64,000 bases of DNA from Candidatus Melainabacteria bacterium 17Bon1m (GCA_032128875.1 JAVLKG010000002.1:864001-928000), one strand, 5' to 3'. Counted from the stretch's first letter, positions 29,494 to 43,609 are shown. Made by a program: numbers and translations. Notes: generated by a model not told the origin, from the sequence alone.

Positions 29494-29514
29494 GCGAAGT
29501 AGCGGATCACAATG

Positions 29515-29543
29515 GGTATACTCAGTATTATTACCATTGTCAA
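29515..29543 (-). promoter_or_regulatory. Putative sigma70 promoter in the 63-bp divergent kinase/regulator gap
   Basis: Minus strand TTGACA-17 bp-TATACC; overlapped by inverted repeat ACAATGG (29509-15) / CCATTGT (29534-40). Confidence 0.4.
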
Positions 29544-29556
29544 TGTATGCGAAACG

Positions 29557-30249
29557 ATGGCAAAGATACTGCTTGTCGAAGACGATCAAGATCTCTCCAT
29601 GATGGTGAAAGCCGGACTGGAAGGGGAAAGGCACGTAGTTGAATGCGCTTTTGACGGCGATGAAGCTATGCATCTGTTGCAGAGCGAAGAATATGATCTT
29701 GTAGTCCTTGATTGGCAATTGCCAAAGCTTTCCGGGATCGATGTCCTGAAAAAACTTCGTCAGATGGGAAAATCTGTTTCAGTGATAATGCTCACCGGAA
29801 AGTCTGCAATCGACCACAAAGAAGAAGGCATTGATACCGGCGCTGATGATTATCTGACCAAGCCTTTTGATATGAGGGAACTCCATGCGCGCCTGCGAGC
29901 ACTACTGCGACGTCCAGGTGGCGCTACTGGAGTGACCGGAAACACTCTAGTCGCGGGTGATTTGGAGCTTGACCCAGTTAAGTATCGCCTCAAAAGAAGC
30001 GGGAAGGATGTGCACCTCACCCCTAAAGATTTTGCCCTGCTCGAGTTTTTCCTGCGCAACCCCGATCATGTTTTCAGTGTGCAGACAATTCTTTCTCGTG
30101 TTTGGAGCTATGAATCCGATGCTTCACCTGAAGGACTACGAGCGGCAATCCGTCGAATTCGCAAAGCTGTGGATATCACCGACGATCCGAATGAGTCGAT
30201 AATTGAAAACGTTGCAAGAGTCGGCTACAGACTGCGAAAACCAAATTAG
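29557..30249 (+). CDS. OmpR/PhoB family response regulator
   Basis: KILLVEDD, VLDWQLP, MLTG, GADDYLTKPF; winged helix LTPKDFALL...ENVARVGYRL. Confidence 0.95.
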   Translation: MAKILLVEDDQDLSMMVKAGLEGERHVVECAFDGDEAMHLLQSEEYDLVVLDWQLPKLSGIDVLKKLRQMGKSVSVIMLTGKSAIDHKEEGIDTGADDYLTKPFDMRELHARLRALLRRPGGATGVTGNTLVAGDLELDPVKYRLKRSGKDVHLTPKDFALLEFFLRNPDHVFSVQTILSRVWSYESDASPEGLRAAIRRIRKAVDITDDPNESIIENVARVGYRLRKPN

Positions 30250-31782
30250 TTATTTACTTGGGTTGTAGTCGTATGCAATTGACTGCTGCAAGCGGAGTTT
30301 TGATTCTTCAGTCTGACCGAGCGCACCAAGGGCCTTGCCGAGCCAATAATAGGCAGAACCTGTCGTCTCTTCCAGTGCGATTGATTTGCGAGCTGCTTCT
30401 ACGGCATCGGCATGTCGGCCCAGTCTTTCGTATATCTCGGCAAGACGGCTATAGTAAAAGGTATTTTTGTCGGGAATTGTTTTGCATTCGTTTAAGGCAG
30501 TTTGAAAATCACCTACAGCTAAGGACGCATCGATAAGGCCGTTCGTAACAGATGATTTGTTTTCTTTATTCTTGATTGCAGTAAAGCATCTTATGGCACT
30601 GGCGTAGTCTTTCATTCCCAGATAGCTGTACGCGCGCTCTTTCTGCAATGTCATATCACCAGGCTTCTTCTTCAGCTTTTGTTCTACTGCGGCAATTTCC
30701 TGCGCGTAAATGTCTTTTGCTTTAGCTGCTTGGCCTGCCTCTTCGTAAACGCTTGCGAGCCAATTATTGATCCAGGCTGATTTTCTCTTTTTGAGTTTTT
30801 CAATGACGAATTCAAAGTCATTCATCGCTTTTACTCTATCATTCAGATCCAGATAAATGCGTGCGCGCGATAATCGCCAGTCTTCTTCTTCCGGTTCTTG
30901 TGCAATCAGTTCATCCAGATAAGCGATGTGTTTCTTCTGCGCATCTGCCAAACCAGCACTATCACCTAGTGCCCTTGCAGTCGATGCTGAATAGTCGTAT
31001 GCACTTTCTTCTTTTGATGTGTCATTTAACCAGGCATTCGCTGCATCATTGGCTTCTCTAATTCTTCCTTTTGCAATCAAAAGATCAATCAAATCGGAAA
31101 ACGGTGACTCTTCTGCTGAGTCGTTCGCATTTGAAGAAAATGAACTACTCTCCTCTGGATATTTTGTGGATTCTTGAAACTCAAAGATTGCCTTGTCCAG
31201 CTCTTTCCTTTTCTTAAGCACCCGGCCAAGGGCATTGTGTACCCGACGTTTGTCGTAATCAAAGGTCAGCGATTTTTCATAGTCTTTTTGAGCTTCTGAA
31301 AGTTTGTCTTTCCAGTGGTATGCAATTCCCCGCTGGTAGTACAAACTTCCATCATTTTTCTCAAGTTCGATAGCTTTATCTAAATCGCGGATCGCATCAT
31401 CATATTCATTCTTGTGAGTGTGTAGCTGCCCGCGATAGCTGAGGCACAGATAGTCTTTTGGGTCCAACTCAATTGCTTTGTTGAAATCAGACATCGCCTC
31501 ATCTTTTCTGTCCAGCCACCAGCGAATGAGACCCCTCTCTCTGTACAAGTTTGCACGGTGAGGGTACTTCTTTATCTGTGCTGTAAAAAGTTTTTCTGAC
31601 GCCTTCCAGGCGTCTTCACTTGAAAATTTAGGATGTGCCCAACTAGGTATGAGCTTGTCCATGTCCTTCGGAGGACTTTTGGACAGCTGAAAGCAAATCG
31701 CCGTTATACCGCCGATCACGATAAATATGGCGCAGCCTAGCCAGACACCGAGCTTCTGGCCGAAGGTTAGCTTTGAAAACAT
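30250..31782 (-). CDS. Membrane-anchored tetratricopeptide repeat protein
   Basis: N-terminal TM; multiple TPRs (AMSDFNKAIELDPK, AIRDLDKAIELEKN, AYYWLGKAL). Confidence 0.88.
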   Translation of the reverse strand: MFSKLTFGQKLGVWLGCAIFIVIGGITAICFQLSKSPPKDMDKLIPSWAHPKFSSEDAWKASEKLFTAQIKKYPHRANLYRERGLIRWWLDRKDEAMSDFNKAIELDPKDYLCLSYRGQLHTHKNEYDDAIRDLDKAIELEKNDGSLYYQRGIAYHWKDKLSEAQKDYEKSLTFDYDKRRVHNALGRVLKKRKELDKAIFEFQESTKYPEESSSFSSNANDSAEESPFSDLIDLLIAKGRIREANDAANAWLNDTSKEESAYDYSASTARALGDSAGLADAQKKHIAYLDELIAQEPEEEDWRLSRARIYLDLNDRVKAMNDFEFVIEKLKKRKSAWINNWLASVYEEAGQAAKAKDIYAQEIAAVEQKLKKKPGDMTLQKERAYSYLGMKDYASAIRCFTAIKNKENKSSVTNGLIDASLAVGDFQTALNECKTIPDKNTFYYSRLAEIYERLGRHADAVEAARKSIALEETTGSAYYWLGKALGALGQTEESKLRLQQSIAYDYNPSK

Positions 31783-31794
31783 CAGCTATCCGAA

Positions 31795-31920
31795 TTAGAA
31801 TTCGGCGACAAGTCCGAAACAGGCGATCATGATGATGAAACCGAAGTAGAGCAGAAGGAACCACATCCAGCGAATGTTCAGCTCGATGTCGGACATTTTC
31901 TCTTTCTTTTCTACTGCCAT
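31795..31920 (-). CDS. 41-aa single-TM peptide, last small gene of the respiratory operon
   Basis: MAVEKKEKMSDIELNIRWMWFLLLYFGFIIMIACFGLVAEF; AGGA upstream; operon-like codon bias (TTC/ATC/TAC); fits between mvhD and the TPR gene. Confidence 0.65.
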   Translation of the reverse strand: MAVEKKEKMSDIELNIRWMWFLLLYFGFIIMIACFGLVAEF

Positions 31921-31964
31921 GACTTCAATCCTTTGATTCTTTGATTCTGAGACCTTGGGAGCTG

Positions 31965-32369
31965 TTATTTGGCTTCCGGTGCGGCGAGATTGTTCAATGT
32001 CGCGATGAATTCTTTCGACTCTGAGATAAAGCGCTGACGTTGCGGTTTTGCCAGCCAGAGAGCCAGAATGCGACGTCTGTCGGTGCCTTTCTTGAGGGTC
32101 GGAGGACGATCGCCGAGAAGGCGTTCGCGAATCATGCGGTTGCCTTCGCGATAGTAGCAATCGCCGATTTGGCAGCCAGTAACAACAACACCGTCGGCAC
32201 CAGCCTTGATGGCATTTTCAATCATCAGTGGTTGAATCATGCCTGAGCAAGGGAATTTGACTACTTTCATGCCGGGCACTTCAGTGCAGCTGCCTGAATC
32301 GTCAACGATGCCGCTTAAGTCGCAGGCGCGTTCGCAGATAAGTGTGATTACTTTCTTAGCATCAGACAT
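31965..32369 (-). CDS. mvhD: MvhD/FlpD family [2Fe-2S] protein (hydrogenase iron-sulfur subunit D)
   Basis: LICER, VVKFPCSGMI, GADGVVVTGCQIGDCYYREGN: four Cys in MvhD spacing. Confidence 0.88.
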   Translation of the reverse strand: MSDAKKVITLICERACDLSGIVDDSGSCTEVPGMKVVKFPCSGMIQPLMIENAIKAGADGVVVTGCQIGDCYYREGNRMIRERLLGDRPPTLKKGTDRRRILALWLAKPQRQRFISESKEFIATLNNLAAPEAK

Positions 32370-32374
32370 TGGTG

Positions 32375-33553
32375 TTACCCTTTCGCCTCCAGAAGAGCCT
32401 TAATCTTCGCGTTCACTTCCGCATCCGGAAGATCTGGCAAATCGATTGCATCAAACGCGCAAGCGCCGACGCATACGCCGCAGCCTGAGCAGCGGAAATC
32501 TTTTACTGTCGCCAACAATTTGAATCTGGAACCAGCTGGTGCAGGCACCATTTCAATCGCTTGGTACGGGCAGTCTTTGTAGCAGAGTGAGCAGCCTGTG
32601 CACTTGTTAAGCACAACTTCAGCTGTTTCGATCGCTGGTTGTTTCGGAATCATCAACCACGGTGCAGCCGTGATTGCGACGGTGCCGAGAATCATCACTG
32701 CCCAGTAACCCATGACCGGCATTTGGCTGAGCATGGCGTATGGGAACAAGAAGAACCAGTCGATGTCGAACGATGTCGGCTGTTGGTTGAGGTCAGCCAT
32801 GCTGCCACTGCTCAACGGCCAGATGAATACGCAGACGAGCACCAATGCGGTCAAAATGTAGTTCACTGCCGGTGGTGGCGTGAGTACTGGTCTGGTCATG
32901 CGCAGGTAGTGAACCCACAGACCGAAGAGCAGGAAGAATGAAAGACCGATGTGGATGAAAAGGAAGTTGGAGAGAGTCAGGTTTGTAATCTGATCTCCGT
33001 TCAAGAACCAGGTCTTGAGTCCAGGTCCAATTACCGGCAGTGCTTCGAAAGCGCTGGCAGTCATTCTTGTGAGCAAGAGCGAGCGGTCATCCCAAACCAG
33101 GTAGAAACCGGTTTGACCAATGAAGAGTACGAAGATTGCCAGAACAATACCGGAAACCCATTGGAGCCAGCGGTATTGACGGTAGCGATCTGTGAACCAT
33201 ACGCGCAGAGCGTGCAGCAAGATGGTGATAACCATCGCGTCGCCTGCATAACGGTGGATACCGCGGATGACACCACCAAAAGGAAGAGACTTGGTGATGT
33301 AATCAACTGAGGTCCAAGCGTTGGTCAGAAGCTTCGAGTTGTAAGCGTTGTCGATGGTCGGGATGTAGTATGCGAAAAGCAGCAGCCCGGAGAGGTACAG
33401 CACCCACAGGTAGTACTGGGGAAGAGCTCCGTGATAGTAGAACGGATTGTATTTACTGGTCATGAACGCGTTGATTGCGTTTTCAATGGCCAGCGTCAAA
33501 CCGTTGAAGGCTTTTAGCGGGTGATTATCGACAATCTTTTGCACTGGGGTCAT
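32375..33553 (-). CDS. Cytochrome b/b6-like protein #2 fused to a C-terminal 2x[4Fe-4S] ferredoxin
   Basis: H100/H114 and H201/H215 pairs; IDWFF at the PEWY position; CTGCSLCYKDCP and CSGCGVCVGACA. Confidence 0.9.
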   Translation of the reverse strand: MTPVQKIVDNHPLKAFNGLTLAIENAINAFMTSKYNPFYYHGALPQYYLWVLYLSGLLLFAYYIPTIDNAYNSKLLTNAWTSVDYITKSLPFGGVIRGIHRYAGDAMVITILLHALRVWFTDRYRQYRWLQWVSGIVLAIFVLFIGQTGFYLVWDDRSLLLTRMTASAFEALPVIGPGLKTWFLNGDQITNLTLSNFLFIHIGLSFFLLFGLWVHYLRMTRPVLTPPPAVNYILTALVLVCVFIWPLSSGSMADLNQQPTSFDIDWFFLFPYAMLSQMPVMGYWAVMILGTVAITAAPWLMIPKQPAIETAEVVLNKCTGCSLCYKDCPYQAIEMVPAPAGSRFKLLATVKDFRCSGCGVCVGACAFDAIDLPDLPDAEVNAKIKALLEAKG

Positions 33554-33589
33554 CCTCTTCTATGCGTCTTCGCTAAAACTTCTTGCTGC

Positions 33590-33973
33590 CTATTTCTTTA
33601 CCGGTAAAACTGTCTTCTCTTCAGCATCTTCTCTGCCGATAATCATGATGGCGATACCGCCAATTGTCAGAGCTACCCCCATAAAGAGAATGTAGCCATA
33701 GTCTCCGAGGCTGGCAGTCGACTTCGGATTTACCGAGACGCCTTTGCCTTGCAAATACTTCGTCAAATCTTCACCCAAACTAGGTGTGAGTGAATTGAAG
33801 AAACCAGCGATTGCGCCGTGCAGACCAATTCGTGAGGTCAGGTCGGTCAGCCAGTCAGGTGTAGTTCCGGTAAAACCTAACTCAGACCATGCCATAAGAA
33901 CACTGACGGCGACAACGGCGCCGGCGAATGCCAGGAGTATGATGCCCTTCGGTGAAAGTATGTACTTAATCAC
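33590..33973 (-). CDS. Small 2-TM membrane protein of the respiratory operon
   Basis: Two hydrophobic helices; AAGGA upstream of GTG; tight operon spacing. Confidence 0.75.
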   Translation of the reverse strand: MIKYILSPKGIILLAFAGAVVAVSVLMAWSELGFTGTTPDWLTDLTSRIGLHGAIAGFFNSLTPSLGEDLTKYLQGKGVSVNPKSTASLGDYGYILFMGVALTIGGIAIMIIGREDAEEKTVLPVKK

Positions 33974-33985
33974 TATGAATTCCTT

Positions 33986-34357
33986 TTACCTGGTTCCGTT
34001 TCGTTCTGCGAGTTTTGCTTCGATTTTGTCGAACAATTTGACCTTGCGTACCAACTTCCCTGTCGACTTTTCTTCGATGTAGATCCAGTAGCCTTGGACT
34101 GCTAGAAGCAGCATGGTTAGTGTGGTACCGAAGAAGAGATAGGCACAAGGAATGAGACCCGGCTCTTTTTGAACTTCACGCCAACCCTCGAAAAACCAGG
34201 AGAGCGTGATTACAGTCAGAGTGAAAGCGAACAGCCTTAAGGGCAGTTTGACTTTCGTGGGCTTGACCAGGGCTTTGGTTTCCACAGCCACGCTAGCATC
34301 ACCGGTGGTGACGTTAGTGTTGATTGCGCGTGGGTCCTTTTTCCCGGTCAAGATCAT
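33986..34357 (-). CDS. Small 2-TM membrane protein of the respiratory operon
   Basis: Two TMs; start moved to ATG 34357 (GGGGA upstream), 7 bp after the cytochrome b #1 stop. Confidence 0.75.
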   Translation of the reverse strand: MILTGKKDPRAINTNVTTGDASVAVETKALVKPTKVKLPLRLFAFTLTVITLSWFFEGWREVQKEPGLIPCAYLFFGTTLTMLLLAVQGYWIYIEEKSTGKLVRKVKLFDKIEAKLAERNGTR

Positions 34358-34364
34358 TCCCCGA

Positions 34365-36155
34365 TTAAGTTGATGCAGATGCCGGTTGAGCAGGTGCTGG
34401 TTTAGGAGCAGCCTGAGCACCAGACTTGAAGTTCCATACCATGTAGGCGCCTACGACTGCAAAGACAGCTCCTGCAATCATCCATGTCCAATCCCAGAAA
34501 GGAATATCTAGGGGATAGAAAACGCCTTTGGTGGTCGTTTCGATGTTCGACGCGCGATTCATTCTGTCGCAGAAAACGACATAGTCGTAAGCCCAGCGGT
34601 TGGTGACCAGATAGTCAACCATGCCCAAGTATTTGGGGTGATCCGGTGTAAATGTCGGGATCCAATTAACGACCCAGTCTACTGGTGACGTCATCTTGCA
34701 ATGTTCAAGAATCTGGTTGAATGCTGCATGAACTTCCGGACCGCCTTTGGCCACATAGTTGTCCTTGAGCCAATCTTGCCAGTCATTCTTATATGTAGAT
34801 GCGAAATACGTGGAGGTTGGTTGAACCTTTCGCATAGCTGCTTCGAGCTTGTCCGCTTCCGGAAGGAATGGACGCATCACACCGTAGAACCACTGTTGGA
34901 ACATGGGTCCGCGGAACATTTCCACTTTCGCCATGTAGTAATAGACGAATCCCCAGAATGCTTGCGAAGCACCGATGACTGCTATTACAAGCGCACCCTT
35001 CCATTGTTTTGCACGTTGGACTGCGTCTTTGTTTTGCCACATGAGCCAGAGCTGCAGACCCATACCTACGTTGACTGTGAGGTATGTGAAGGCTCTCCAA
35101 TACGGAGGATCGGTGTGGATGTTGGCGATGTTAGCGATGATGAGCAGTGAGAATACGATCCAGCTCACGAGAGCCATGATCACTACCCAGAATATGAATG
35201 GTCTCTTGTTGATGTCTTTCTCTGCGCCGGTCAGCCAGACATCCATGAATGGCAAGCCGACAACGATTAGAGGCAACACAATAGTGATTTCTGTTGCTAC
35301 GACAGGCTCCAGGTATTTGTACATTTGGTACAAGCCAAGGAAGTACCAGTCAGACAAAATCGGAAGCGGTGTGACGTCCGGATCTGACCGTTTACCTTGC
35401 GCAGCAGGAAGAACTATAGCTACAACAACCAACATCAGGGTGATGATGGTGCGCTTTGCCCAGCTAAGTGGAACGCGCTTATAAGCGTTTTTGTAGAAGT
35501 AGAGTTCTACAAAGATCAAAGGAATGAGAGAGAAAGCGAGGTGGATAGAGAAGAATCGTGTGATTGTCTCCTGCGTGATAGCCGCTCCGCCGCCCAGGAG
35601 AACTTCGGCTGTATTCCATCCCATGTGAATCGACTTTACGAGCGGCTGATAGAAGTCGCCCATGACCGGGAATTGGTCCATGTAAGTCGGGAATGTCGCG
35701 AATACCTTTGTCGCCCAAAACGCGCGCTGGTTCCAGATCAATAGATATCCAGTCAGACCGGAATACATTGATAGCAGAAGCGCTACAAGAGCGATTGCAA
35801 TGTTGAACTCTTTACCCGGTTTGTAATCGGCACAGATGAACATGCGATACATGCGCATCGTCGCCGCAATGATCATGGCGTCGGCACCGTACTTGTGCAT
35901 GCCCCGCATGAGACCGCCGAAAGGAATACCGTTCTGAATGTGGAGAATAGAATCAAATGCCTGCGCTTTCGTAGGTACGTACCACATGATGAGTACGCAG
36001 CCTGTGAACATAACGAGGAACCAGACCATGTAGAAGATTGGCCCTAGAGAATACCAAGGGTTTGTCTTCGCTTCCTCGCGGTGATGCTCATCGAATATAT
36101 CGATGTTGTTGATCCGCGTCTTTACCCAGTCTATGGTTGCATTTACCGCTGACAT
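34365..36155 (-). CDS. Cytochrome b #1 (fused PetB/PetD-like) with extra C-terminal TMs and a soluble insert; lacks bH ligands
   Basis: RGMHKYGA, TGYLLIWNQRAFWA, TITRFFSIH, TPLPILSDWYF; H87 and H205 present, R101 and Y219 at the second ligand positions. Confidence 0.9.
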   Translation of the reverse strand: MSAVNATIDWVKTRINNIDIFDEHHREEAKTNPWYSLGPIFYMVWFLVMFTGCVLIMWYVPTKAQAFDSILHIQNGIPFGGLMRGMHKYGADAMIIAATMRMYRMFICADYKPGKEFNIAIALVALLLSMYSGLTGYLLIWNQRAFWATKVFATFPTYMDQFPVMGDFYQPLVKSIHMGWNTAEVLLGGGAAITQETITRFFSIHLAFSLIPLIFVELYFYKNAYKRVPLSWAKRTIITLMLVVVAIVLPAAQGKRSDPDVTPLPILSDWYFLGLYQMYKYLEPVVATEITIVLPLIVVGLPFMDVWLTGAEKDINKRPFIFWVVIMALVSWIVFSLLIIANIANIHTDPPYWRAFTYLTVNVGMGLQLWLMWQNKDAVQRAKQWKGALVIAVIGASQAFWGFVYYYMAKVEMFRGPMFQQWFYGVMRPFLPEADKLEAAMRKVQPTSTYFASTYKNDWQDWLKDNYVAKGGPEVHAAFNQILEHCKMTSPVDWVVNWIPTFTPDHPKYLGMVDYLVTNRWAYDYVVFCDRMNRASNIETTTKGVFYPLDIPFWDWTWMIAGAVFAVVGAYMVWNFKSGAQAAPKPAPAQPASAST

Positions 36156-36172
36156 GTTATCGATTGACTCCC

Positions 36173-36736
36173 TCAGGCGATTGAACCGGCTTCCAAACCA
36201 ACGATCTTATACGCATTGCCCTCTTTCTTGAGGTCAAACTTACGCGGCGGGCGCGGCGCAGGCCCAGAAACTACTTTGCCGTTTTGGGCAATGTCGTAAA
36301 CGCTCAAGTGGCAAGGGCATGCAAAAACGGGACCTTGTGGTTTGAAGTTGTAACCCTTGGCACATTCCGAAGGGTCTTTGACAAAGTTGAACACACAACC
36401 AAGGTGCGGGCAAATGCGGCTGTAGGCGACCACATCACCGGACGGCAATTTGACAATGAATCCGGGGATTTCGCGGACTTCTTTACCTTCAGGGTTGTAC
36501 TCGACATATTTCTGCTTGAACATGAAGTCAATGCATGTCCACTCTGACGGGAAGTCCGAATCGCTGAAGGAAACGTCTTCTTCAGGTCCGGGTTGATCGG
36601 AAGGTCCAAAAACGTCCAGAGGCTTCAGCGTTGGACGCATGTACCTCAGCAACGGCGATATGACCAGACCAAACGTGGCGGCGAGCGGAATAGCTGCCAG
36701 AGTCTTCAGAATAATTCTTCTATTTGTGCCTTCCAT
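36173..36736 (-). CDS. Rieske [2Fe-2S] subunit of a bc-type complex
   Basis: Tat-like NRRIILK + TM; CPHLGC and CPCHLSVY; GPAPRP; start ATG 36736 after GGAG. Confidence 0.93.
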   Translation of the reverse strand: MEGTNRRIILKTLAAIPLAATFGLVISPLLRYMRPTLKPLDVFGPSDQPGPEEDVSFSDSDFPSEWTCIDFMFKQKYVEYNPEGKEVREIPGFIVKLPSGDVVAYSRICPHLGCVFNFVKDPSECAKGYNFKPQGPVFACPCHLSVYDIAQNGKVVSGPAPRPPRKFDLKKEGNAYKIVGLEAGSIA

Positions 36737-36749
36737 TTTTCGAACTCCG

Positions 36750-37688
36750 TTACTTTGTCTCGCCCTGAGGCTTAGCTTCTTCGGGTTTAGCATCAGCGGG
36801 TTTGTCTTCCGCCGGCTTAGCATCTTTGGTCTTGGCGCCTTCTTTGGTGTTATCGATTGGAGCGCCTACCGTTGGCGAGCCTATATTTGCCTCGGCGATT
36901 TGTTTGTTGGTTGAGTGGAATGCACGCACGTAGGCTACGAGCTTCCAAATATAAGCCTCATCGAATTTAACTTCTTTGGCTTTGTCCTCCTTGCCGAGGA
37001 AATTGGGCATCCCTTCCCACTTTATGCCATTTGCGATGTGATCCCATAGGATATCGTCGGTTCTGTCGTAAAAACGCTTATAGTTTTGGAAGTTGGCTGG
37101 GTTGGGCTCGAGTACGTTGTACTTGTTGAGCGGACCGTCGCCATAACCCTTAGGACCGTGACAGACTGCGCAATTCGCGCCGTATACAGGGGTGACTTTG
37201 GAGTATTCCTTCGCATCCAAAAGCGGTGCTGAGAGAGAGCGAACGTAATAAACAAGGTTCCAAGTCTTCTGGCTGGAGATGTCAGCCAAGGTCGTTGGGT
37301 GCTTGACGCCGTCTTTGCCGAATGCGAGGAACATATATTGATCGATCGGCTTTTGTTTGTGACCGTACTCAGGCGAGGTGAGGTCGATTGCCGATTTGCC
37401 GCTGACGCCTTTTCCGCCCGTGCCGTGGCACTCAGCGCAAGAAAGCTTTTCATAGACTACTTTGCCGTCCGGCTCGGATGGTTTGTCATCCGGGTAAATG
37501 GCCTCTCTTCCACCCTTGGTTACGTCTTTGGAAACCAGTTGTGAATCGTCACCTTTGACGGTGACTTGATTGCCGCATCCTGTAACTAGTGTCACCGCAG
37601 GTAACACCACTAGCAAAAGTGCCAGCAAGGATGTCGACAACCCGGCGAATGTTTCAAACGTAAAAACTGGTTTTTTGGAACGTGTCAT
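36750..37688 (-). CDS. Dihaem cytochrome c lipoprotein
   Basis: Lipobox LVTG-C; CAECH and CAVCH; GMP in domain 2. Confidence 0.9.
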   Translation of the reverse strand: MTRSKKPVFTFETFAGLSTSLLALLLVVLPAVTLVTGCGNQVTVKGDDSQLVSKDVTKGGREAIYPDDKPSEPDGKVVYEKLSCAECHGTGGKGVSGKSAIDLTSPEYGHKQKPIDQYMFLAFGKDGVKHPTTLADISSQKTWNLVYYVRSLSAPLLDAKEYSKVTPVYGANCAVCHGPKGYGDGPLNKYNVLEPNPANFQNYKRFYDRTDDILWDHIANGIKWEGMPNFLGKEDKAKEVKFDEAYIWKLVAYVRAFHSTNKQIAEANIGSPTVGAPIDNTKEGAKTKDAKPAEDKPADAKPEEAKPQGETK

Positions 37689-37695
37689 AACTCAC

Positions 37696-37941
37696 TCAGT
37701 AACCGAAGAAAGGAATCCAGGAGAACATTGCCCAAAGAACAATGAAGAAGAAGCACACAATGAGAAACAGGGGAGGCGGACCTTCACCAATACGGTATTC
37801 AGAAACTACTTCATAATGTTCATCTGCCGAGGGCGCGGCTGCGGCAGCTTTAGCAACTGCTGCGGGTTTGGCGGCAGGTTTTTCTTCAGCAGATTTCTCC
37901 GCCTTAACCTCGTCCCCGTTGTTTTTCACTTCTTCAGCCAT
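37696..37941 (-). CDS. Small single-TM protein resembling the CcoP N-terminal helix
   Basis: HYEVVSEY...PPPLFLIVCFFFIVLWAM; GAGG RBS. Confidence 0.7.
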   Translation of the reverse strand: MAEEVKNNGDEVKAEKSAEEKPAAKPAAVAKAAAAAPSADEHYEVVSEYRIGEGPPPLFLIVCFFFIVLWAMFSWIPFFGY

Positions 37942-37967
37942 TTCCTACCTCTTTGTGCGCAAATTTT

Positions 37968-38216
37968 TTACTTGTTGGCCGTCGATGCACTGAGCCTGAT
38001 CCTTTCAACTGCTGCCAGCGCTTTTTGGCCAGTAGTGTTGTCGTCGCCGTCGTCAAGCATGTCGAACTTTACGTCCTCCATGTTTTCAAACTCACCGTTT
38101 TTGAAGGCCCACAAAATTGCTGCAATAGCCATTACAAAAAACAGGATGCAAATGAAGAAGGCGACGTATATTCCCGAGCTCAGACCTTGCTGGTTGAGAA
38201 TGCAATTAGGACACAT
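37968..38216 (-). CDS. ccoS: cbb3-type oxidase assembly protein CcoS
   Basis: TM followed by LWAFKNGEFENME (CcoS W-A-x-x-x-G-Q/E-F-D/E pattern); GGAGG RBS. Confidence 0.8.
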   Translation of the reverse strand: MCPNCILNQQGLSSGIYVAFFICILFFVMAIAAILWAFKNGEFENMEDVKFDMLDDGDDNTTGQKALAAVERIRLSASTANK

Positions 38217-39295
38217 TAGTGGCCTCCTTCTTTTGTGGACGTGCCGCTGGTTGTGGTACCAGTACTGGTGCCTTCAGGAGATGAAGGTGTTGAAGGTTGC
38301 GGCATTTTGTGTTCGGATGGGCTCATGTTGTCACCTTCCGCCTGATGTCCGTGTCCGCCGTGGTGAGGTTCGTACTGCTGGTTAGACAACTTAGGCAGAT
38401 GGATATCTTCAACTTTGTTGATCTGACCGATACTGTTGATAGTTACCTCTTGGTCTTGAGGGATCGTCTTCAAGTATGCAACCAGGTACCAGCGTTGCTC
38501 TTCGGTAAGCGTTTCGGCCCAACGCGGCATCCGCGTTCCTACAATACCTTCTGAGATTCTGTAGAACCAGAATTCGTCGGAGTATTGCTTGTAGTATGGG
38601 CGGCTGAAATTTGGCGGTTTCTTTTCTAGAGAAAGTGAATTCGGACCTTCTCCGTAGCCGTTCAAACCGTGGCAAACAGCACAGTTCTGCGTATAAATAC
38701 CTCTGCCAGCATTAGCGTTGGCACTGGCATTGGTGTCAACTGTTTTACGGTTGTGCAATGCCACACCGGCTGGTGTAGTAGTTCTGTATTCGTCAGGAGC
38801 TTCGACGAATTCTTTCACCTGGCGACCGTTGCCCAAGCACTGTACATACGCGACCAGGTCGTTCATGTCCCGCTCGGACAGGTAGCTGAAGCTAGGCATG
38901 ATCGAGCCGGGTTTGACAGCGCGTGGTTGGATCAAGTGAGCTTTCTGCCACTCTGAAGCCATGCGTCCGCCTTCATTGGTCAAGTCCGGACCGGTACGGG
39001 CAGTGCCCAATTGGTGCGGTGTTTCCCAGATGAAGTCGCCCGCTTTGACGAGTGGACCATAACCTCTGTCTTGCAGACGGGTGAATTGAGTATGGCAATA
39101 GAAGCAGCCTTCCCTTACATATATTTTCCTTCCGCGAGCTGCATCTGCGACATTGGAAGCGACTTTGGTGTAGTCGTTGCTTCTGTGCTCTTTATCCGTT
39201 GGATTGAACAGCACCATCGGCAGAAGAACCGTGGAGAAAATGATGATGAAGAAAGTGGTGACGATACCGATTGCACCTAAACGATAGCTGTGCAT
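38216..39295 (-). CDS. ccoO: cbb3-type oxidase subunit II fused to a second cytochrome c domain
   Basis: GRKIYVREGCFYCHTQ, GTARTGPDL, HLIQPR, GSIMPSF; second CAVCH...GTRMP; His-rich tail. Confidence 0.92.
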   Translation of the reverse strand: MHSYRLGAIGIVTTFFIIIFSTVLLPMVLFNPTDKEHRSNDYTKVASNVADAARGRKIYVREGCFYCHTQFTRLQDRGYGPLVKAGDFIWETPHQLGTARTGPDLTNEGGRMASEWQKAHLIQPRAVKPGSIMPSFSYLSERDMNDLVAYVQCLGNGRQVKEFVEAPDEYRTTTPAGVALHNRKTVDTNASANANAGRGIYTQNCAVCHGLNGYGEGPNSLSLEKKPPNFSRPYYKQYSDEFWFYRISEGIVGTRMPRWAETLTEEQRWYLVAYLKTIPQDQEVTINSIGQINKVEDIHLPKLSNQQYEPHHGGHGHQAEGDNMSPSEHKMPQPSTPSSPEGTSTGTTTSGTSTKEGGH

Positions 39296-40701
39296 TACGC
39301 TTTCACCTCCGCTGCCTTAGCTGCAGGTGCAACTGATGCGGCAGGTTTTGTGTAAAGCGTCTTCCAGACGTTGTACGCAAACAGAAGTTGTCCCAAGACA
39401 ATCATGATTCCACTAATGCCTCTAAAGAACCAATAAGGTCTGATCTGCAATCCCCACTGATCGACAGGCATACCCATAGCCCAGCCAGCTGATTGAATCA
39501 AACCGGCAATGGTGAGCGATGTCATCATCAGGAGGAAGCCCAGGAATTTCAGCCAGTAGTGAGCGCGGATCAAACCTTGGCTGTAAAACTCTCTTCCGGT
39601 CAATTTCGGCAACGAATAATAAATTGCCGAAGTGAGGATAAAGGAGAAGGTTCCCAGAAGAGCAAGGTGGGCATGGCCTACAACCCATTGGGTGAAGTGT
39701 AAGTACCAGTTGACCCAGCGTGTCGCCTGGAACGGACCCTGTATGCAGGTGACCAGATAGAACATGCAGGATGTCACTGCAAAACGCAGTGGCAAATCGG
39801 TGACTGCCTGCCCCCAGCGACCCTTCATTGTCATGAAGAAGTTCGTCAATACGGTGAGTACAGGAACTAAAAGGAATATCGATGAAATGATTGCAATCGC
39901 TTTGAGCCATTCCGGTACAGGCGATTGGGTGATGTGGTGAGTACCGGTCGGAGCATAGAACAGAGCGATTCCCCAGAAACCCAACATTGACAAGCCATGG
40001 CTGTAGAGTGGCGCTTGGGTCAATCTGGGAAGCAGGTAATACATCATGCCTACGCCGACTGTGGTGAACCACATGCCCAGAATGTTGTGTCCGTAGAACC
40101 AACCGACGATCGCGTCGTTGAGCCCGGGCAAGGCAACGAAAGTTCTCTGTCCGATGATCCACACTAGCGGGAACCAGAACAGAGAACCGAGGAAATACCA
40201 GAGAGTCACATACAGTTTTTTGACTCTTCTGTTGAGGATGGTCATGTAGATGTTCAGCGCTACAGACACCAGAGCGACTGCTACGAGTACGTCGAGGATC
40301 GCTCCGAGTTCCGCATATTCCCGACCTTCGGTGTTGCCATTGAGCAGAGTGCAGAAGGCGGCGACAATCACCAGGTTCCAGGCCCACATGGTCATGTTCC
40401 CGAGCCTCTCTGACCAAAGCTTGGTCTTACAGAGATTTGGAACCATGTAGAAGATGGAGCCTACATATCCCATCGATAGCCAACCTACCGCTACAGCGTT
40501 GACGTGGAACATTCGCATATGCGGAAATGCCAACTGCGGCACGTTTTTAACCAGGTCGGGCATGGAAAACTCCAACCCGCCGATCATTCCTGCCCCCATG
40601 CCCCACAGTGACCACCACAGAGCGGATAGGAAGAAATTACGACTGGCGCTGCCCTCTTTATTGCTGAAAAGCTTGTCTGCAACAGAACTCAACTTGGACA
40701 C
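39295..40701 (-). CDS. ccoN: cbb3-type (C-family) haem-copper oxidase subunit I
   Basis: RMFHVNAV, EGREYAE, WFYGHNILG, LYS, FY...GTHH, WVVGHAHLALLG. Confidence 0.95.
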   Translation of the reverse strand: MSKLSSVADKLFSNKEGSASRNFFLSALWWSLWGMGAGMIGGLEFSMPDLVKNVPQLAFPHMRMFHVNAVAVGWLSMGYVGSIFYMVPNLCKTKLWSERLGNMTMWAWNLVIVAAFCTLLNGNTEGREYAELGAILDVLVAVALVSVALNIYMTILNRRVKKLYVTLWYFLGSLFWFPLVWIIGQRTFVALPGLNDAIVGWFYGHNILGMWFTTVGVGMMYYLLPRLTQAPLYSHGLSMLGFWGIALFYAPTGTHHITQSPVPEWLKAIAIISSIFLLVPVLTVLTNFFMTMKGRWGQAVTDLPLRFAVTSCMFYLVTCIQGPFQATRWVNWYLHFTQWVVGHAHLALLGTFSFILTSAIYYSLPKLTGREFYSQGLIRAHYWLKFLGFLLMMTSLTIAGLIQSAGWAMGMPVDQWGLQIRPYWFFRGISGIMIVLGQLLFAYNVWKTLYTKPAASVAPAAKAAEVKA

Positions 40702-41171
40702 CCCATATAGGCGCTAGGCCGATAGCGAAAATCCCATCAGAGCGCCCCAAGGGCTGCCGATTTGGCAAAAGCAGGTTTTTTGGGAAACCACTCTTAAAAG
40801 AGATCTTCATGACGCAGCGCCAATTTTAGATTAATGACATCCGCCTGAAAGGTCCGTTGTTTGATGATTTTTCACACACTTTTTCTTTAACCTACGAAAT
40901 AACGTCGTTAAAAACGAACCGAAAAAGATCTTTCATTCGATACAAACCGTAATGTGTTTGCCAAGTTGCCGTGAAGCTTTCAGTCACTTACAACCGCGAT
41001 GCAACTTAGGACATCTTTGACACCTACATTCGATATCGAATGAGAAAGACCCCACTACCTTATGTAGAGGCTGATTTTCGACGTAATTTTTTCGCTCTTG
41101 TAAAGCTTCGAATTTTGTCGATGTCAGTGTCCAATTACCGCAGCAAGATGTCTTGCTGCGCCATCTTTTTA

Positions 41172-41924
41172 TTAGGCGCCGCCTGATTGTTTTTCCGTCT
41201 TGAAGTTTTCTTCCTTGATTCTTTCTTTTTCCAGCCGCTCGGCTTCGAGCTTTTCTTTGCGCGCTTGAGCCGCCTGCTCTTTTTTGCGTTTCTTTTCCTC
41301 TGCTTCGGCAATAGCTTCCGGGCGCAGATCAATAGAGTTGTACTGGTTCATCGCTTTTAGCGTGCCTTCGTTTATCCAGGTAAACAAGCACTTCTTCGCA
41401 AGGTCTTGAGTTTGAGCAAGCAAATCTTGCTGCGCCTCTGGAATCCGGGAAAGTACAAACGAAGCGCGTTTGTCGCCGCCAGGATCGGGACCTACACCGA
41501 ATTTCAAACGAACTATCGATGTGTCTCCTCCCAGGCATTGAATTATGGATTCGACTCCATGCTGCCCCCCGGCACCCCCTCCGTTCTGCACCCGGAGTTT
41601 GCCAAGCGGCAAGGCGACGTCGTCATGGACGACTATGAAAGAGGAAACCGGCAGTTTGAACCATTGCTTAACCGCTACCAGACATTCTCCAGACAGGTTC
41701 ATATATGTCATGGGTTTGACCAGCATTATCGTTTTGCCGCGGTAGGAAAACTTCGAAAAGTCGCATTTCAGGCGGCTGTTGCTGGCGGGCTCCGCACCAT
41801 TTGCAGTACCAATGGCATCTACAACCATGAATCCCATGTTATGACGGGTACGCGCGTATTCTGCACCTGGGTTGCCGAGCCCCACAATCACTCTGGTTTC
41901 GTTGTCGTTATTTTGGTCAGCCAT
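41172..41924 (-). CDS. pth: Peptidyl-tRNA hydrolase with charged C-terminal tail
   Basis: IVGLGNPG.EY..TRHNMGF, KPMTYMNLSG, VVHDD, RLKFGVG; start ATG 41924. Confidence 0.93.
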   Translation of the reverse strand: MADQNNDNETRVIVGLGNPGAEYARTRHNMGFMVVDAIGTANGAEPASNSRLKCDFSKFSYRGKTIMLVKPMTYMNLSGECLVAVKQWFKLPVSSFIVVHDDVALPLGKLRVQNGGGAGGQHGVESIIQCLGGDTSIVRLKFGVGPDPGGDKRASFVLSRIPEAQQDLLAQTQDLAKKCLFTWINEGTLKAMNQYNSIDLRPEAIAEAEEKKRKKEQAAQARKEKLEAERLEKERIKEENFKTEKQSGGA

Positions 41925-42190
41925 CTTTAATCTGTGTAATGCATTGCTTTTGAAATTCACTGTTGCCGCCTCTATTTGCACGGACGGACGGCCGGGCACC
42001 CGGGCTTATGAGAAACAATATTAATAGATAGAACGCACTTCAAGTTTGGGCAACGTTTAAACTATAAAATTGTTTGGCGCACACACGTTATTGCGCTATT
42101 TAGACAGCGTTCTTCAATGCGCGCGGTTCCAGCAATAACCTATTACGTGCTTGAAAACAATCACTCCCACTCAGACATAGAGTTAAAGGC

Positions 42191-43609
42191 ATGACTGAAA
42201 GCGAAGCCAATTTCCCCTATTTGCCGCATACCGACGCAGAGCGCAAAGAGATGCTCAAGACAATCGGTGTTGCGTCCTTCGAAGAGCTCGTCAAGCACAT
42301 TCCCGAAAAGCTGAGAGCGAAGGCACTCAACTTGCGAAGCGGAATGAGCGAGCAAGAATTGGCGAAAGAAGTTCAGGCGATATCCAATCGCAATATGCCT
42401 GCCTCACGCCAAGCCAGTTTCCTTGGTGGCGGCTCTTATCGCAGATATGTTCCGGCAATTGTCGGCAATATTCTCTCGCGTGGTGAGTTCTCTACCGCTT
42501 ACACGCCCTACCAACCTGAAGTCAGCCAGGGCACTCTACAAGCCATTTACGAGTTTCAAACTGCAATTTGTCTTTTGACCGGAATGGAAGTCGCCAATGC
42601 TTCCATGTACGACGGACCGACAGCACTAGCGGAAGCATGCTTGATGTCCAGCCGTTTGAGCACGAAAGAAAAAATCGTCGTTGCTTCTTGCGTCAATCCG
42701 GAATACAGAGAAGTCGTCCGCACCTACTGCGATTCCTGTGGGCTCGAGTATCAAGAAGCAGCGCTTTCGGGTGGCGAAGCTGATTTGTCGAAATTGCCTA
42801 TTGATGACAAGACCAGCTGCGTTGTCGTTCAATATCCAAATTACTTCGGTGTTCTTGAAGATCTCGAAGGACTTTCGCAAAAAGTGCATGCTGTTGGAGC
42901 GCACTTGATTGTTGTGTCCGAGCCCATCTCGCTTGGTTTGCTTACTGCGCCTGGTGAATTCGGCGCCGACATTGTTGTTGGTGACGCGCAGCCTTGCGGT
43001 AACTCGCTCTCGTTCGGCGGACCTTCGGCCGGATACATGGCTACCAAAAAGGAATTTATCCGCCAACTTCCGGGACGTCTTTGCGGCGTCACTGTCGACA
43101 ATCGCGGACAGAGAGCCTTTACTCTCACATTGCAGACACGCGAACAACACATTCGCCGCGCTAAAGCGACGTCGAATATTTGCACCAACCAAGCTTTGAA
43201 CGCTCTGGCTATGCTGGTTTATATCGTCAGTGTCGGACCGGTTGGATTGAAGGAGCTCGCTAATATCAGCTTGCAACGCGCACACAGTCTCAAAGAAAGA
43301 CTTACTGCAATCAGCGGAATCGAAGCACCTTTCTCGCAACCGTTCTTCAATGAATTCGTGATCAAGACCAGCCAGCCTGCAGCTCAGGTTCTTGATGAAT
43401 TGAAGGCAGAAGGAATTTTGGGCGGTATTGATCTTTCGTTCTTTTATCCGGAACTGAAGAATCACTTGCTCGTCTCAGTCACTGAAATGAACTCCCCCGA
43501 AGATCTCGATCGATATGTTTCGGCGATGGAGCGCATCGTAAAAGGTGGCTTGAAAACCCGCGATAAGGAAGCTGTGGGCAGCGCTGCGGCAAAAACCGGC
43601 GGCAGATAA
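42191..43609 (+). CDS. gcvPA: Glycine dehydrogenase (decarboxylating) subunit 1
   Basis: YLPHT, TAYTPYQPEVSQGTLQAIYEFQ, ANASMYDG, LQTREQHIRRAKATSNICTNQ. Confidence 0.96.
   Translation: MTESEANFPYLPHTDAERKEMLKTIGVASFEELVKHIPEKLRAKALNLRSGMSEQELAKEVQAISNRNMPASRQASFLGGGSYRRYVPAIVGNILSRGEFSTAYTPYQPEVSQGTLQAIYEFQTAICLLTGMEVANASMYDGPTALAEACLMSSRLSTKEKIVVASCVNPEYREVVRTYCDSCGLEYQEAALSGGEADLSKLPIDDKTSCVVVQYPNYFGVLEDLEGLSQKVHAVGAHLIVVSEPISLGLLTAPGEFGADIVVGDAQPCGNSLSFGGPSAGYMATKKEFIRQLPGRLCGVTVDNRGQRAFTLTLQTREQHIRRAKATSNICTNQALNALAMLVYIVSVGPVGLKELANISLQRAHSLKERLTAISGIEAPFSQPFFNEFVIKTSQPAAQVLDELKAEGILGGIDLSFFYPELKNHLLVSVTEMNSPEDLDRYVSAMERIVKGGLKTRDKEAVGSAAAKTGGR

Follow-up and report, generated by a model that had tools for sequence, protein, structure and literature searches.

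The window considered here, a stretch of 64,000 nucleotides from Candidatus Melainabacteria bacterium 17Bon1m (GCA_032128875.1 JAVLKG010000002.1:864001-928000), contains on its minus strand a tight row of genes, each named one of which was assigned to its family by Pfam. The row ends with the gene of a cytochrome b, the second one of the operon (cytochrome b #2, hereafter b2), which is extended by an iron-sulfur (Fe-S) ferredoxin tail and is followed by an mvhD (flpD) gene. These features are the following.

31965..32369, minus strand: mvhD/flpD, 134 amino acids (aa), [2Fe-2S]-type adaptor, last gene of the operon (Pfam FlpD/MvhD, 8.5e-20)
32375..32641, minus strand: 2x[4Fe-4S] ferredoxin tail of b2, ending in a helix-like extension (Fer4_7, 4.6e-9)
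32375..33553, minus strand: b2-ferredoxin, 392 aa, with four haem His, an IDWF motif (xDWF, Qo-type) and about six membrane helices (Pfam Cytochrome_B, 6e-23)

A preliminary description of this DNA had placed the start of mvhD 5 bp past b2, and the junction indeed reads TAA, five bases, ATG; the C-terminal sequence that it gave for b2 also matches the translation of the open reading frame (ORF) 32375-33553 on the minus strand.

Pfam analysis of b2 reports a Cytochrome_B domain (residues 29-219) and a Fer4_7 domain (residues 317-369), and the closest match in the PDB is cytochrome b6 (8.7e-24, residues 24-221). The haem ligands H100, H114, H201 and H215 and the eight cysteines of the ~85-residue tail, arranged in two CxxCxxCxxxC motifs (C318..C328 and C355..C365), are invariant in 29 aligned relatives, and the four histidines are also kept in 25/25 sequences of the b2 family and in 82/82 copies in which b2 and MvhD are fused. 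After helix D, hydropathy predicts only two further hydrophobic segments (229-247 and 278-296), the IDWF motif occupies residues 264-267, and the Fe-S tail ensues; Pfam returns no Cytochrom_B_C match, and the region of helices E to H, or its equivalent subunit IV, found in Rieske/cytochrome b cytochromes is missing. The p-side motif, LVWDDRSLLL, has diverged from that of b6 (LPWDQVGYWA). The membrane topology of cytochrome b is well established. Since hydropathy and the b6 alignment give an even number of helices, the tail is predicted to lie on the N-terminal, cytoplasmic side of the membrane.

The 134-residue product of the mvhD gene scores 71.4 bits with the FlpD model of Pfam (cut-off 22.3) and matches the MvhD chains 5odc_D (7.9e-16), 8rvu_F, 9sw2_D and 7bkb_F of the PDB, with values ranging from 1e-12 to 1e-16. 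Its cysteines C12, C41, C66 and C71 are invariant in 28 sequences and would be the ligands of the predicted [2Fe-2S] cluster, while C16 of the window protein is not conserved. The genome (7.55 Mb, 93% complete) holds a single FlpD copy.

The pair was followed in 79 related loci taken from one-genome-per-species contigs, each count using the loci with enough flanking DNA. The mvhD gene lies at most 150 nt after the b2 gene in all 75 loci with at least 450 nt of downstream DNA, a recurrence far above chance. Immediately upstream of b2 is another cytochrome b, #1 (hereafter b1), in 69/69 loci, and upstream genes for a Rieske protein and for CcoN are found in 64/64 and 61/61 loci, respectively. 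The close relatives include Candidatus Obscuribacter and other Obscuribacterales, and the synteny extends to L080, a locus titled Vampirovibrionales, with 45% identity. FlpD is present in 59 of the 61 sampled genomes of the order, including 39/39 good ones, always as a single copy on the contig that also carries the CcoN-like gene, which all 61 genomes have. Across the phylum (201 genomes), full-length matches to b2 are confined to its own genome and two genomes of the same class (48% identity); 73 small genomes of that class within this sample return no match, and the match of the oxygenic cyanobacteria is restricted to the cytochrome b6 part.

Kinship with heterodisulfide reductase HdrA

The preliminary description had read the tail and MvhD as the C-terminal ferredoxin region of HdrA and its docking partner, grafted locally onto complex III. 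Among the 18,950 NCBIfam models, the top Fe-S family for the tail (residues 310-391) is HdrA2 (NF040770, positions 571-644, 49.2 bits), ahead of PorD (36.2 bits), NuoI (34.2 bits) and RnfB (33.5 bits), and HdrA2 is likewise the top family for MvhD (positions 650-774, 61.8 bits; VhuD 39.6 bits). Because the HdrA2 model, 777 positions long, describes a natural HdrA-MvhD fusion, the tail and MvhD of the window are collinear with its C-terminal end, and in 4/4 fused relatives positions ~570-770 are matched in one stretch with 80-115 bits. Against the PDB, the single tail finds the C-terminal ferredoxin domain of HdrA (9sfi_A, residues 581-652, 44.9 bits) ahead of FwdG and PsaC. A profile of 38 tails matches this domain in all five distinct HdrA sequences of the PDB (42-63 bits), the alignments extending to profile position 81-84 of 85; the same profile scores FwdG (51.7 bits) and RnfB (47-49 bits) on a par with HdrA, and polyferredoxins outrank HdrA only because several domains, none above 33 bits, are added up. 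The PDB scores by themselves therefore do not separate the tail from FwdG or RnfB, and the clearer preference for HdrA2 comes from NCBIfam.

The collinearity over the last ~200 HdrA2 positions establishes, at the level of sequence, that the ferredoxin-MvhD pair and the C-terminal end of HdrA2-type heterodisulfide reductases are homologous, and this part of the earlier idea holds. As in HdrA and MvhD of known structure (5odc, 7bkb, 9sfi, 8rvu) and in NF040770, the same two domains occur in the same order. Unlike in HdrA, they are attached to a membrane cytochrome b: HdrA2 positions 1-570, with flavin and other domains, are unmatched in the window pair, HdrBC and Mvh hydrogenase are lacking, and neither the flavin-binding thioredoxin-reductase-like core nor the N-terminal and inserted Fe-S domains of HdrA are found, the tail scoring far under the NF040770 cut-off of 1100.

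Fused relatives of cytochrome b #2

The notion of a local graft, by contrast, is not supported. Kao and Hunte (2014, Genome Biol Evol; PMC4122944) report cytochromes b with 4Fe-4S and MvhD in Magnetospirillum magneticum and Turneriella parva as the 'PDWF-FeS' branch, with a gene cluster devoid of a Rieske protein and a function given as unknown. A search of 1.84 billion representatives yielded 301 proteins at E<=1e-30, and a FastTree tree rooted on b1 was built from the 145 usable rows among the best 150 of these. MvhD resides in the same chain as the cytochrome b and the ferredoxin in 115 of the 145, and these natural fusions show that both parts work together. The window protein falls within an unfused clade of 13 rows beside a mostly fused clade of 132 rows (SH-like values of 91 and 88). 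Judged by its sequence, b2 is a split member of the PDWF-FeS clade, and the joining of ferredoxin and MvhD to a cytochrome b is old and family-wide, normally found in eNOR-type operons without a Rieske protein. The likeness lies in the xDWF cytochrome b, the 4Fe-4S domain and MvhD, represented here by IDWF, Fer4 and the adjoining gene. The window differs by the separate MvhD gene, the Rieske protein (36173-36823, and in all the related loci counted) and second cytochrome b in the cluster, and a neighbouring enzyme of the cbb3 type instead of the eNOR type.

The named members of the family belong to Thermodesulfobacteriota, Nitrospinota and Methylomirabilota, and their annotation reads 'hydrogenase iron-sulfur subunit'. 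The fused forms of the eNOR-type operons are of the same family (33-41% identity) and keep all cofactor ligands, and the combination PF00033, Fer4 and PF02662 is found in 19/19 longer relatives listed, two of which end in a periplasmic cytochrome c past an extra helix. Many members add one helix and a ~150-aa periplasmic beta-rich domain (66/79 fused loci), none of which is seen in the window or the Melainabacteria loci. An ESM Atlas search with this domain returned unnamed clusters only, and a metal site in it was dropped as a candidate because none of its Cys or His residues is invariant. In about half of the fused relatives, an 11-residue insert follows directly on the last Cys of the second cluster motif (alignment columns 65-75); the window and other Melainabacteria lack it. 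Tandem pairs of fused genes occur in loci L092, L098, L099 and L101, every copy having its four haem His.

The neighbourhoods of the fused relatives were examined in 79 metagenome loci (L084-L162). SCO1/SenC stands immediately upstream in 55/68 loci and COX1 upstream on the same strand in 40/50, most of the remaining ones carrying COX1 at another place within the locus; a CuA subunit II is found in 38/48, a downstream hemerythrin in 30/55 and a UbiA-type haem O synthase in several. No Rieske protein was detected in the 79 loci or by Pfam among 36 neighbours. Two chains join such genes: P0155 comprises an N-terminal SCO1, cytochrome b and ferredoxin, and L125:7244-8941 comprises UbiA and SCO1. 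The neighbouring haem-copper enzymes exhibit a Gln four residues past the CuB His, and their subunit II has a CuA motif; a Gln at that position is given as the mark of eNOR in PMC8756737. An assignment to the sNOR operon norSY-senC-orf1 was rejected, and an eNOR-like operon fits better, because the neighbours have Gln and not Asn at this position and because the Bacillus orf encodes a different protein, with six helices and ~190 aa. The window differs from these operons in that its enzyme is CcoN/CcoO-like, in place of a CuA enzyme with a Tyr-to-Gln replacement beside SCO1.

The operon and the inner-haem ligands of cytochrome b #1

Upstream of b2, the window operon comprises the following genes.

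33590..33973, minus strand: 127-aa conserved membrane protein, two helices by hydropathy, no Pfam/NCBIfam match, present in most related loci
33986..34420, minus strand: 144-aa conserved small membrane ORF, no Pfam/NCBIfam match, sharing 56 nt with the end of b1
34365..36155, minus strand: b1, 596 aa, Rieske-side, outer-haem His pair and SDWY kept, inner-haem His replaced by Arg/Tyr (Pfam 6.2e-22)
36173..36823, minus strand: Rieske iron-sulfur protein (Pfam Rieske, 7.3e-10)
36750..37688, minus strand: dihaem cytochrome c (Cytochrome_CBB3, 4e-15, two stretches)
37696..37941, minus strand: 81-aa conserved ORF, no family (Pfam scan; related loci)
37968..38216, minus strand: FixS/CcoS-like maturation protein (Pfam FixS, 1.1e-6)
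38216..39295, minus strand: CcoO-like subunit fused to a cytochrome c domain (FixO, 9.4e-31; Cytochrom_C, 2.5e-20)
39295..40701, minus strand: cbb3-type haem-copper oxidase subunit I, CcoN-like (COX1, 4.1e-80; TIGR00780, 284 bits, under the cut-off of 583)

The two small membrane ORFs sit between both cytochrome b genes, and a weak terminator-like site follows mvhD at 31818-31801. Four runs labelled RNA-Seq cover window positions 29500-42500 with contigs of 19-65 kb, identical to the window and of flat depth; they look DNA-like, are perhaps from the source sample of the assembly, and are uninformative on transcription. What is new here is the occurrence of a ferredoxin-MvhD cytochrome b module inside a Rieske/cytochrome b-cbb3 operon, in Obscuribacterales and in the one Vampirovibrionales locus, together with the loss of both inner-haem ligands from the accompanying b1. 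A literature search returned no description of the Melainabacterial split form, its MvhD or the loss of haem ligands described below, although supplements outside that search (Soo et al. 2017, PMC6349859, PMC11214002) may list the genes.

When b1 is aligned to the cytochrome b6 chain 2zt9_A, the counterparts of His86 and His187 are kept, while His100 is replaced by Arg and His202 by Tyr, with no other His in those haem helices. Of 75 rows examined, three were b2 picked up in short loci and were excluded; Arg and Tyr occupy the two inner-haem positions in all 72 true orthologues, the one in L080 included. The four axial His are thus complete in b2 and incomplete in b1, and these replacements make the loss of the inner haem (bH) from b1 likely, not proven. 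The b6-like p-side motif is retained in b1 (LIWNQRAFWA as compared with LPWDQVGYWA) together with SDWY, and in the b6 alignments the Cys of the b6 CxGG motif for haem ci is absent from both b1 and b2. With cytochromes b6f and bc1, the system shares the four-helix haem bundle, the Rieske partner and a Qo-type motif; it departs from them in having two unlike cytochromes b, b1 without inner-haem ligands and b2 with a membrane part that stops after about six helices and continues into Fe-S domains, and in lacking the CxGG Cys. The survey of Kao and Hunte (PMC4122944) holds that losing either haem would break the Q cycle and names one exception, a Pyrobaculum cytochrome b without the second bH ligand. 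The natural loss of an inner-haem ligand is common to that protein, as described there, and b1; here, both ligands are gone and a complete second cytochrome b is always encoded beside b1.

A second Rieske/cytochrome b pair (167 and 360 aa; Pfam 1.2e-50 for the latter) is encoded on a different contig of the genome, at G000:C1:309932-311527 (L171:4932-6527, plus strand), flanked by two ORFs without a family; the 360-aa cytochrome b has four His at b6-type spacing and is of the PEWY type. A 912-aa ORF at G000:C2:713446-716181 (L172:4446-7181, plus strand) fuses CcoN-, CcoO- and dihaem cytochrome c-like parts. Upstream of it lie genes for a sulfite-oxidase-like molybdoenzyme and a rhodanese/beta-lactamase-fold protein, and 15 other genomes of the order contain long ORFs resembling it.

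The preliminary description had reported that the window lacks genes for a hydrogenase, Hdr or a flavoprotein, and family scans of 12+12 ORFs surrounding the operon and, at E<=1e-12, of another 25 ORFs likewise gave no such hit. The outside partner that it placed elsewhere was not found in the 93% complete genome. Neither the window nor this genome yielded an HdrA or an Mvh/Vhu-type hydrogenase of the kind MvhD/FlpD works with, and no NuoF-type flavoprotein was detected in the genome. The latter encodes one GlcF/HdrD-like 2xCCG protein, 535 kb from the operon, and a single [NiFe] hydrogenase cluster, which we take to be group 3b-like (G000:C1:437353-445064, L083), with a Fer4_22 subunit, an NAD-binding subunit, small and large subunits, HycI, HypA and HypB. 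Three universal stress protein genes precede this cluster.

Possible routes of the electrons

It is known that electrons can pass from one outer haem (bL) to the other across the bc1 dimer. Because the second electron must find a way out of a Rieske-type Qo site and b1 has only bL, we propose, at a little short of an even chance, a b1/b2 heterodimer that sends the low-potential electron of the Qo site through the Fe-S domains and MvhD to a cytoplasmic acceptor instead of to a Qi site. In this proposal, b1 and b2 would come together as the monomers of a bc dimer do, and the oxidation of quinol would take place at the b1 Qo site, with one electron passing via the Rieske protein and the c haems to the cbb3 enzyme and O2. 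The bL of the partner cytochrome b being the one nearby exit route, and b2 offering bL, bH and Fe-S clusters, the other electron would travel from bL of b1 to bL and then bH of b2, and from there over the two [4Fe-4S] clusters and the MvhD cluster to a soluble acceptor that is not encoded nearby, an Fe-S wire standing in place of the Qi site. The Fe-S domains on the cytoplasmic side of b2 and the likely loss of the inner haem from b1 together suggest that this electron, instead of being recycled as in a normal Q cycle, is led out to the cytoplasm. We infer the pairing, the direction and the acceptor from the composition, ligands, conservation and synteny reported above. Anammox Rieske/cytochrome b complexes with extra Fe-S/flavin subunits have been proposed to bifurcate the electrons of quinol to NAD(P)+. 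They would have in common with b1/b2 a low-potential branch leaving cytochrome b toward the cytoplasm; their added subunits are different, and no flavoprotein is present here.

Several points weigh against the heterodimer. Neither a second cytochrome b nor a Rieske protein is needed by the fused relatives, and b2-type proteins therefore have a role independent of b1; they also conserve their own acidic p-side residues (equivalents of D155 and D265). No acceptor or donor gene was found in the window or the genome, and the loss of the inner haem from b1 is, as said, only likely. An electron moving inward against the membrane potential would leave little drive for ferredoxin-type clusters, a tight balance if these are of low potential. 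Lastly, since a canonical Rieske/four-His cytochrome b pair is encoded elsewhere, this operon need not carry the main flux.

The standalone occurrence of the fused relatives would fit an arrangement, in our view unlikely, in which b2-ferredoxin and MvhD form a quinol-linked complex of their own that serves the oxidase, as in the eNOR operons, and b1 acts alone with the Rieske protein as a one-haem cytochrome b, with no heterodimer. The tandem copies, all with four His, and the Pyrobaculum precedent for a missing inner-haem ligand (PMC4122944) point the same way. However, b1 and b2 never separate in the 69 loci, and on the established view, given in the same paper, no working example is known of a Rieske-type Qo site that leaves the second electron without a route.

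An input port, one of the two options of the preliminary description, is a doubtful reading to about the same degree: a cytoplasmic reductant (ferredoxin, hydrogenase or other) would feed MvhD, the Fe-S clusters, and bH and then bL of b2, and thereby quinone, the c haems or the haem-copper enzyme. The tie of the family to haem-copper operons, with COX1 upstream and CuA subunit II, is consistent with it, as are the two relatives terminating in a periplasmic cytochrome c. On the other hand, no donor gene adjoins the pair in the 75 loci or in the window, the sole [NiFe] hydrogenase cluster already has Fe-S and NAD-binding subunits of its own, and outward electron flow would probably cost membrane potential. 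The loss of bH from b1 would be left unexplained, as would a Qo site and Rieske protein with no exit for the second electron; this loss, which the preliminary description had overlooked, favours an output over an input port.

CcoG is a cupric reductase, and a maturation role, in which the module would replace CcoG/FixG, for example, and deliver the electrons needed to insert a metal or cofactor into the oxidase, appears improbable: it could draw on the SCO1/SenC genes directly upstream of the fused relatives, the SCO1 fusion P0155, the haem O synthases, the FixS-like gene of the operon and the lack of ccoG (no TIGR02745 match above cut-off in the 61 genomes of the order, all with a CcoN-like gene; no TIGR02745 or FixG_C match in the own genome, and TIGR02745 absent from the top 25 of the 47 NCBIfam families matched by b2), but the two haems, the conserved Qo-type motif and the cytochrome c fusions resemble respiratory electron transfer, no copper-binding motif was seen, and the paired loss of bH in b1 indicates a structural partner. 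A role in haem a synthesis was dropped, as cbb3 enzymes need no haem a.

The b1/b2 heterodimer can be carried one step further, to a proposal that we consider a long shot. It would be a complex III that is heterodimeric by nature and has no Q cycle, in which the electrons of quinol part at the Qo site of the one-haem b1. The high-potential one would go to cbb3, the low-potential one would cross the dimer and pass along the HdrA-type wire to a soluble ferredoxin, and the ferredoxin-type NDH-1 of these bacteria, which lacks NuoEFG, would return it to the quinone pool with proton pumping. The route from ferredoxin to cytochrome b6f in cyclic electron flow has long been debated. If the extended proposal is true, the system would be a hard-wired counterpart of that route, run in reverse, in the sister lineage of Cyanobacteria.

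The family of cytochromes b joined to ferredoxin and MvhD is widened here from the operons of eNOR-type nitric oxide reductases to a cbb3 oxygen reductase, and its presence beside both enzymes argues for a general role in the service of haem-copper enzymes. Cytochrome b is treated as having four invariable haem ligands, to the point that the main survey of the family removed sequences without them (PMC4122944). An order-wide b1 without inner haem, always accompanied by a complete b2 with an Fe-S wire at its end, would provide in nature what cross-dimer electron-transfer experiments have created by mutating bc1, and would allow quinone-based electron bifurcation to be tested. The finding is also relevant to how the non-photosynthetic sister groups of Cyanobacteria put together their aerobic respiration.

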